64,000 nt of DNA from Eledone cirrhosa (taxonomy: Eukaryota). The position numbers and the translations under genes are program-made. This document shows, one piece after another, positions 39,888 to 41,446 of the stretch. The DNA is taken from positions 4,092,001 through 4,156,000 of the forward strand of contig OZ024763.1 in assembly GCA_964016885.1 (NCBI GenBank), in the 5' to 3' direction. Each line of letters begins with the position of its first letter. The first letter of the stretch is position 1. The notes beneath the pieces were generated by a model that was given only the letters and a program-made list of their open reading frames with translations, had not been told where the DNA came from and did not search any database.

Positions 39888-41446
39888 TATGAAATATAAG
39901 AATCAAAGAACTGTTCAAAACATTATTGTGCTTACAGCTGTTTCCTCCAAACCGAGGTTTGGATTCTTCGGAGCAATTTATTAATGCATGGACAGTTATA
40001 TGACCTCCCCTTCAGCCGAGAGACATACCAATACATATTCAAACATTGATACATATTCAAACATTGTGGGTCAACATTCATTACAGAATTTAGAGTGGCA
40101 GTACACCCTTCGAGATTACATTTATATTAATAGGTACAATCAAAAATCAAAGGTATAGGTTAAAGTACAACATGAAGATAAGTGGTTATATAGTGCAAAT
40201 GTTATATGTGTGGCAGGCATGTGCGTCTTGTTTATATAGTGTGGCAGAGAGATATGTGTGGTAGAGGCACTTAGGTAGGTAAATAAGAGTGTTAGGTTGG
40301 TAGATCTGGTGGCAAAGTCTTTATATGATTGATATAGTCTGTGTGTGGGGAAATATTATAAGCATTAAAGATAGTGCAAGCATTAAAAGTGTTATAAGTA
40401 TTGGAGATGCACAGCGCAGGGATGTCAAGTAATTCATGTACTTCGGTATTTTCATGGTCAAGGGAGTGTATATTTCGATTATATGCCTTTCACATAATCC
40501 ACGACAATCCAGTTAGAGATCGTAGTCTGGTGTTCTTTAGTTCGATACAGGAGGTTGTTACGTTTCGATAGACGCCATTGAATACCGGTATTCAATGGCG
40601 TCTCTCGAAACGTAACAACCTCCTGTATCGAACTAAAGAACACCAGACTACGATCTCTAACTGGATTGTCGTGGATTATGTGAAAGGCATATAATCGAAA
40701 TATACACTCCCTTGACCATGAAAATACCGAAGTACATGAATTACTTGACATCCCTGCGCTGTGCATCTCCAATACTTATAACACTTTTAATGCTTGCACT
40801 ATCTTTAATGATTATAATATTTCCCCACACACAGACTATATCAATCATATAAAGACTTTGCCACCAGATCTACCAACCTAACACTCTTATTTACCTACCT
40901 AAGTGCCTCTACCACACATATCTCTCTGCCACACTATATAAACAAGACGCACATGCCTGCCACACATATAACATTTGCACTATATAACCACTTATCTTCA
41001 TGTTGTACTTTAACCTATACCTTTGATTTTTGATTGTACCTATTAATATAAATGTAATCTCGAAGGGTGTACTGCCACTCTAAATTCTGTAATGAATGTT
41101 GACCCACAATGTTTGAATATGTATCAATGTTTGAATATGTATTGGTATGTCTCTCGGCTGAAGGGGAGGTCATATAACTGTCCATGCATTAATAAATTGC
41201 TCCGAAGAATCCAAACCTCGGTTTGGAGGAAACAGCTGTAAGCACAATAATGTTTTGAACAGTTCTTTGATTCTTATATTTCATATAACTGCTCTGTAAA
41301 TCATCTGATGTTTTTACATTGAGCTACTTAACTTACTGGTAATAAGGTAGTAATACATTACTGCCTACCACTATTTAGGGTGTGTGTAAAATACTTACAA
41401 CTGCTTAAGGTTTTGTGTTTACATAACCATAAATAGTATAACTAAT
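39888..41446 (+). mobile_element. 1.4-kb near-perfect palindrome (39888-41285) plus tail: 5'-truncated Penelope-like element
   Basis: Axis at 40586/40587 (gaatacc|ggtattc) with 699-bp arms and no spacer. Each arm has GIY-YIG-like remnants (LLYRTKEHQTTI, HSLDHENTEV) and a hammerhead-like motif. The tail resembles 45400-45535. Confidence 0.85.
41198..41244 (+). ncRNA. Minimal hammerhead-like motif with variant core CCGAAGA
   Basis: tgct [ccgaaga] a tccaaac-ctcg-gtttgga g [gaaa] cagctg [ta] agca. Mirror copy at about 39929-39975 (-). Confidence 0.65.

Follow-up and report, generated by a model that had tools for sequence, protein, structure and literature searches.

A near-perfect palindrome with 701-bp arms in Eledone cirrhosa is probably a head-to-head insertion of a non-coding, hammerhead-bearing repeat made by Penelope-like element enzymes

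Insertions of Penelope-like elements (PLEs) were described as carrying an inverted 5'-truncated copy adjoining the 5' end, a one-sided tail of 30-40 bp and a bias toward (TA)n targets (PMC8557442). Frequent head-to-head palindromic PLE junctions were interpreted as the result of self-priming on an antisense template (PMC3846280), and the choice between self-priming and two-strand priming was named as unresolved in PMC8557442. In vitro, the Anolis Poseidon protein cuts and extends both strands of AT-rich DNA, with two RT start points (PMC11167929, Frangieh et al. 2024). The minimal hammerheads of PLEs have a helix II of 7-8 bp, a helix I of 4-5 bp, an extra base at stem II and a palindromic stem III, and dual minimal hammerheads have been described at spacings of 100-700 bp on opposite strands, with opposite-strand pairs known from Schistosoma (PMC4209133, Cervera and de la Pena 2014). 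Non-LTR retrozymes were argued to be non-autonomous PLE derivatives (bioRxiv 10.64898/2026.07.22.740005). Moreover, 31 recently active Penelope-like families were reported in O. vulgaris (PMC13282606), and octopus has an excess of near-perfect dsRNA loci (PMC5625713).

The window analysed here, a stretch of 64,000 nucleotides from Eledone cirrhosa whose first letter is position 1, contains a palindrome that is in all likelihood a real feature of the sequence. It is composed of the following parts.

37597-39885 (detected to 39890): left (AT)n array, interrupted by C on the + strand (153 C, 5 G), likely the left half of the target
39886-40586, - strand: left arm, an inverted copy without the tail
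39971-39933, - strand: second, mirrored instance of the minimal hammerhead core, from the descriptor scan
40585-40588: apex CCGG, native family sequence
40587-41287, + strand: right arm, a 5'-truncated sense copy of the element
40587-40881, + strand: candidate decayed C-terminal part of a GIY-YIG endonuclease, proposed from short motifs only, with a 65-codon open stretch at 40684-40878
41198-41244, + strand: predicted minimal type I hammerhead motif (descriptor match 41202-41240), predicted cleavage after 41240
41288-41445, + strand: one-sided 3' tail of about 158 bp, unpaired, on the right side only
41446-42337 (detected from 41445): right (AT)n array (58 C, 4 G), with the same strand polarity as the left array

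The arms measure 701 bp each and meet with a spacer of 0, the centre falling between 40586 and 40587. They differ at 2 of 701 pairs (40569/40604 and 40362/40811), and self-BLAST of arm against arm gave E=0.0 and 2543 bits, far above chance. An earlier note on this DNA had described 699-bp arms without a loop, two mismatches near 40369 and 40569, and a location between two (AT)n arrays. The palindrome, the absent spacer, the number of mismatches, the site at 40569 and both arrays were confirmed. The arm length had left out 2 bp, the other mismatch is at 40362, 7 nt from the place given, and the right arm does not touch its array, since the tail of about 158 bp, which had been overlooked, intervenes. 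The outer end of the left arm, an internal ATATA of the element, directly abuts the left (AT)n array. With the tail on a single side, the inverted repeats do not form both termini symmetrically. The sense orientation of the element was assigned by the strand of the hammerhead, and the apex is the junction of two 5' ends. A second copy of the tail, 86% identical over 102 bp, was observed at 45391-45545, where it sits between (TA)n runs.

Compared to endonuclease-positive PLE units (Penelope/Poseidon, Neptune, Nematis and Naiad; PMC8557442, PMC3846280), the locus shares the head-to-head inverted partial copy and the palindromic junction, as well as the one-end extension and the (TA)n target (PMC8557442). 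PLE units show no discernible target-site duplication, and at this locus any such duplication would be masked by the microsatellite. An inverted 5'-truncated copy lies head-to-head at the 5' end, as in PLE-derived insertions, and the (TA)n insertion bias is reflected both in the two element ends, which lie in (AT)n, and in the second tail copy. PLEs are known from the literature to show, as a matter of routine, inverted 5'-truncated copies, hammerhead pairs on opposite strands and palindromic junctions, and the strangeness that the earlier note implied for the palindrome was thus not borne out. Unlike endonuclease-positive PLEs, the locus has no RT frame and the family looks non-coding. Within 39886-41445 we found no ORF of at least 100 aa besides read-throughs of the AT arrays, and no telomerase-like reverse transcriptase. 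No PLE reverse transcriptase or autonomous partner was found in the window either; both RT ORFs of the window accompany AP endonucleases and are therefore attributed to LINEs, not to a PLE. Identity as an autonomous PLE was dismissed for lack of an RT.

The dimensions of the locus also depart from those described. Its arms of 701 bp compare with pLTRs of about 180-220 bp and junction palindromes of 18-38 bp in the Adineta examples, and its tail of about 158 bp is far above the published 30-40 bp (PMC8557442). Naiads are without canonical hammerheads, and the locus is not Naiad-like in that respect. The preference of Anolis Poseidon for cleaving AT-rich DNA resembles the locus, and two RT starts would give copies with different 3' ends; the starts in that system, however, are close together and without target homology, whereas the short arm here ends on ATATA about 158 nt inside the long arm (PMC11167929). 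Non-LTR retrozymes are similar in being non-coding and in having a type I hammerhead, but they consist of head-to-tail tandem units (bioRxiv 10.64898/2026.07.22.740005). At the locus there are no head-to-tail tandem hammerhead units, the only duplication that TRF detected inside the element was one of 18 bp in each arm, and the ribozyme motifs lie on opposite strands. Identity as a tandem retrozyme was dismissed, since there is no tandem unit (cf. bioRxiv 10.64898/2026.07.22.740005, PMC6765202). The locus thus differs from the compared PLE examples by its arm length, zero spacer, long tail and U4C core. No report of such fold-backs was found in the octopus and cephalopod Penelope literature searched, a search with incomplete coverage. 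The consensus libraries in the supplements of PMC8557442 and PMC13282606 may already include the present family.

Near the 3' end of the element, at the position of a pLTR, a minimal type I hammerhead is predicted as a structure motif. Stem I has 4 bp, stem II has 7 bp with one unpaired base per side, stem III has 2 bp closed by a palindromic loop, and GUA stands at the predicted cleavage site. The motif departs twice from the consensus, by its U4C core and by the absence of the conserved G10.1-C11.1 pair. A type I descriptor scan of the masked window returned 8 sites, where 20 Markov simulations averaged 0.55; under strict settings there were 2 sites, and none in any of the 20 simulations. 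Rfam at the gathering score gave no match in the window, hence no hammerhead, and none of its 22 matches in 39800-41500 at E<=10 was a hammerhead; most were miRNA models placed on the apex or in the AT arrays, and all were put down to chance. Of the paired variant hammerheads claimed in the earlier note, two structure motifs were thus recovered by the descriptor scan at counts above the simulations, with Rfam silent. A functional pair was ruled out by their location on opposite strands, such that a read-through transcript would have one sense motif and its complement.

A single copy of the hammerhead did not fold as a hammerhead (z -1.5 to -1.9). When two sense copies were cofolded, the minimum-energy form was a dimeric hammerhead at -35.1 kcal/mol versus 2 x -11.7 kcal/mol (a gain of 11.7). 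Fittingly, the motif is similar to the minimal type I hammerheads of metazoan PLEs in its helix II of 7 bp and helix I of 4 bp, in the extra base between 9 and 10.1, in the palindromic stem III and in the predicted dimer (PMC4209133). It is unlike them in the U4C core and the missing G10.1-C11.1 pair, and the spacing of about 1.2 kb between the two motifs compares with 100-700 bp for the opposite-strand pairs in the same source. U4C occurs in a viroid hammerhead ribozyme and reduces in vitro activity (PMC3088659). The hammerhead sequence was identical in contigs of two independent sequencing runs (X1 and X2), and among the variants listed none fell in 41165-41244; because of this identity, the U4C variant is family-wide. 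Further single minimal hammerheads with canonical cores were observed at 45617-45666 and 57513-57558, both on the - strand.

We propose, with a probability of roughly 0.7, that the palindrome consists of two head-to-head parts, a 5'-truncated copy of a non-coding hammerhead-bearing repeat and an inverted partial copy of the same sequence, and that it likely arose in one insertion event carried out by PLE enzymes in trans. A PLE endonuclease and RT would be supplied in trans, the endonuclease would nick the (AT)n array, and target-primed reverse transcription would begin in the tail. The cDNA would halt at the native CCGG, having reached about 860 nt, and its end would snap back or jump onto itself, with 701 nt being copied. 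Copying would stop at the internal ATATA, which would anneal to the opposite side of the cut array. The template would already have been decayed and would have carried about 7 private substitutions, with one substitution per arm added later. By an alternative route, both target strands would be primed and two cDNAs would anneal via CCGG, giving the same product. We commit to self-priming over two-strand priming; the data do not separate them. The mechanistic value of the locus lies in two junction details, the zero-spacer apex with its native 4-bp CCGG and the ATATA micro-homology, both of which bear on this choice. The palindrome is most likely a dead-end by-product without function, and an unusually long and clean example of a known by-product of PLE insertion.

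The layout of the palindrome recurs elsewhere in the window. A systematic scan found 10 short-spacer palindromes, of which 8 were kept; a nested one at 47584-47636 and one at 52802-52875, which lies beside (TG)n and not (AT)n, were left out. Two fold-backs with longer spacers (28046-28422 and about 57000-57307) were added from self-BLAST, giving a hand-picked set of 10 that includes the palindrome itself and the following.

Nine smaller fold-backs, spacers 1-130 nt: 4701-5016, 28046-28422, 47410-47778, 47882-47942, 48098-48158, 49960-50223, 50294-50430, 51289-51382, 57000-57307

In all 10 hand-picked fold-backs, one arm lay within 0-8 nt of (AT)n, the other at a distance of 54-167 nt. In 9 of the 10, the short arm terminated in an alternating A/T stretch of 2-6 bases that belongs to the element. 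Four fold-backs had a hammerhead that passed the descriptor, three of them on both arms, and six had none; among the smaller ones, those at 47.5k and 50.1k had the motif on both arms, that at 28k on a single arm. The fold-backs at 47.9k and 48.1k are one tandem duplication and are not independent. In the 47.9k/51.3k family, the apex position differed between copies, and since these copies turn back at different points, fold-backs would form anew with each insertion. An exact 216-bp tandem duplication at 47860-48262 includes two small fold-backs.

The repeat was followed in independent sequencing runs. Part of 40540-41445 was present in 17 of the 24 listed runs (13 studies); half or more of the words were present in 6 runs, and 11 listed runs had a word share below 0.5, only X8 of these being among the aligned runs. 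No RNA run was among those listed as containing the sequence, a result that speaks neither for nor against expression. Logan contigs from 4 runs of 4 studies formed the alignment set. The element was found in contigs of all four at about 98.5% identity, and in X4 at least 1006 contigs aligned to it with very high summed depth; it is a dispersed repeat family. In every one of the four runs, one contig aligned from 40585 and then extended 5' into the same CA-repeat-containing sequence. Record 1 of X1 spanned 40585-41226, with 10 other letters among 642 and no gaps. Since these contigs continue 5' of 40585 without folding back, the family is not palindromic and the apex CCGG is native to it. Contig depth at 40540-40570 was 0 in all four runs and no strand-change joint was among those listed, a result that cannot demonstrate absence of the fold-back. 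The four runs probably lack the present insertion, because its private letters are missing there too.

At the first stop codons, no variant was among those listed in the contigs of the runs. The broken frames are thus common to the runs' contigs, and the decay is a family trait older than the present insertion. The suggestion of the earlier note that a decayed non-autonomous template had been mobilised recently was supported by this and by the identity of about 98.5% in all four runs. Summed depth in X4 rises several-fold from the 5' part to the hammerhead and tail, a pattern that 5'-truncated copies would be expected to give. Subfamilies join the hammerhead and tail region to different upstream sequence (contig ends at 41197 and 41283).

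At seven positions (40726, 40824, 40957, 41020, 41066, 41163 and 41164), both arms had the same letter and the runs had another; the first four sites were covered by 4 runs and the last three by 3. The family letter was at essentially full depth at six of these sites, and 40957 differed at one third of the depth in X4. A template bearing the seven letters was not seen in the covering runs, apart from a partial match at that one site. The arms diverge from each other by 0.29% (95% interval, 0.03-1.0%), a single C:G to A:T change having arisen in each since the duplication. At 40811/40362 the left arm has the family letter, so that it was the right arm that mutated; at 40604 no variant was listed, so that the right arm would carry the family letter and the mutation at 40569 would be on the left arm. 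Two arms decaying independently cannot yield seven shared and two private substitutions (P about 1e-4), and the seven would thus predate the duplication or have been copied across. The two arm-private mutations are both C:G to A:T transversions, and 4 of the 7 shared changes are A>G or T>C, too few to interpret; the signal for an A-to-I origin of the shared substitutions was not significant.

These numbers also bear on a different history, in which an earlier insertion gathered the seven substitutions in place and received its second arm later by snap-back repair, or had its arms homogenised, the second option of the earlier note, by template-switch correction or gene conversion. We consider this unlikely. 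Seven letters common to both arms versus only two arm differences would be in line with it, and snap-back at very short inverted repeats yields palindromic duplications in yeast (PMC7999016). After a later duplication, however, the unduplicated tail should have aged, yet the 3' part showed no difference to X1 (41197-41445, 249 bp) or to X2 (41205-41445, 241 bp). This test is weakly informative (P = 0.07 to 0.16) and weakly favors a young insertion. Moreover, a one-sided layout recurring in several unrelated families suits an insertion mechanism better, and two mismatches remain between the arms, one of them only 18 bp from the apex. Under an octopus calibration of distance 0.09 per 25 million years, quoted in PMC13282606, the insertion would be about 0.4 million years old, provided that the arms were not homogenised. 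If the palindrome was made in a single head-to-head insertion, as we prefer, it would have stayed intact despite its instability because that insertion is young, as the 0.29% arm divergence suggests.

A library or assembly fold-back chimera would account for the observation that no independent contig crosses the apex, and long, spacerless, near-identical palindromes are the least stable kind (PMC7999016). Such an artefact would mirror everything, but the tail is one-sided. Both arrays are C-rich on the + strand, with 21 C and 0 G on the left and 19 C and 0 G on the right in the 300 bp adjoining the junctions, a polarity that most other arrays of the window share, and the 4-kb flanks outside both arrays have no sequence in common. 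In addition, each arm has its own mutation relative to the family (40811 on the right and 40569 on the left), and micro-homology marks the end of the short arm, a feature of 9 of the 10 fold-backs. A chimera is thus quite improbable.

The notion that the palindrome moves as one complete unit, be it a palindromic retrozyme or a DNA element of the fold-back or MITE-like type, has in its favor the long inverted arms, the TA-rich target and the precedent of palindromic DNA elements such as the frog Harbinger repeats (PMC5625713). It is very unlikely nonetheless, since the family passes the apex without folding back in all four runs, the ends are asymmetrical owing to the tail, a tail-only copy exists at 45391-45545, and apex positions vary between copies of the neighboring 47.9k/51.3k family. 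Identity as a MITE or fold-back DNA transposon was dismissed on the one-sided tail and the non-palindromic family in the four runs. Selective retention of the palindrome to supply long dsRNA, for endo-siRNA against the family or as an ADAR substrate, is hardly credible: a read-through transcript is predicted to form a 700-bp duplex of about -1290 kcal/mol, and octopus is rich in near-perfect dsRNA-forming loci with strong hyper-editing (PMC5625713), but the fold-back was not seen in contigs of the four runs, there was no sign of conservation, and both arm mismatches fit neutral drift.

Beyond the single insertion that we favor, it is conceivable, if doubtful, that fold-back PLE insertions (about ten in 64 kb) are a main source of perfect dsRNA and that the longest spacerless ones persist through arm-to-arm correction. 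If so, the seven shared versus two private substitutions would be a record of this correction, and the octopus excess of near-perfect dsRNA and hyper-editing would have a concrete origin. The link between that excess and the fold-backs of the window is a conjecture. The substitution counts and the density of fold-backs are the aspects of the locus that deserve attention.

We also investigated the coding remnant of a GIY-YIG endonuclease that the earlier note had placed in the arms. LxxRxxEH (40620-40643) followed by His-x-hydrophobic-Asp (40705), which we take to be PLE endonuclease motifs, are found in the arm in their proper order and in different frames. None of 3000 shuffles matched this arrangement, the motifs having been picked after the translation was viewed. 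The GIY motif, the YIG motif and the cysteines (CCHH) were absent from the arm translation. A Pfam search in three frames gave no GIY-YIG match and only an LRR match at E 0.18, PHROGs and NCBIfam profiles gave no match to 3 pieces, and searches of PDB sequences and word-index protein searches gave none, all of these being weak tests for a short decayed fragment. The remnant thus found no backing in Pfam, PHROGs, NCBIfam, PDB or protein collections; as a reading of the arm sequence, it is plausible and unproven. A full HMMER protein scan returned two matches, both translations of tandem repeats without Pfam families, which were discarded. Neither metagenome contigs nor GTDB genomes contained a locus matching two short motif patterns, as expected of an animal repeat.

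The window contains further repeats. A LINE at 33771-37511 (+ strand), with AP endonuclease and RT in neighboring frames, lies between two long (AT)n arrays, and its right-hand array is the left flank of the palindrome. A second, more broken LINE at 5483-7563 (+ strand) retains pieces of AP endonuclease and RT. A stop-free frame of 565 codons at 7938-9635 (- strand) had no Pfam match and overlaps a 156-bp tandem repeat. In the (AT)n arrays at 2182-2937, 28534-33164, 37597-39885, 41446-42290 and 54561-57016, nearly every interrupting base on the + strand is C (319 C to 18 G in one case, 255 C to 3 G in another), and this polarity holds over 55 kb, with the array at 1-1626 being less uniform. 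An inverted SINE-like pair, 88% identical, occupies 57650-58051, and this dispersed repeat is also present at 17900-18080 and 50450-50614. A degenerate CTAACC-type repeat was observed at 52267-52413, and a 45/95-bp satellite begins at 60283 and runs through 64000, extending past the end of the window.
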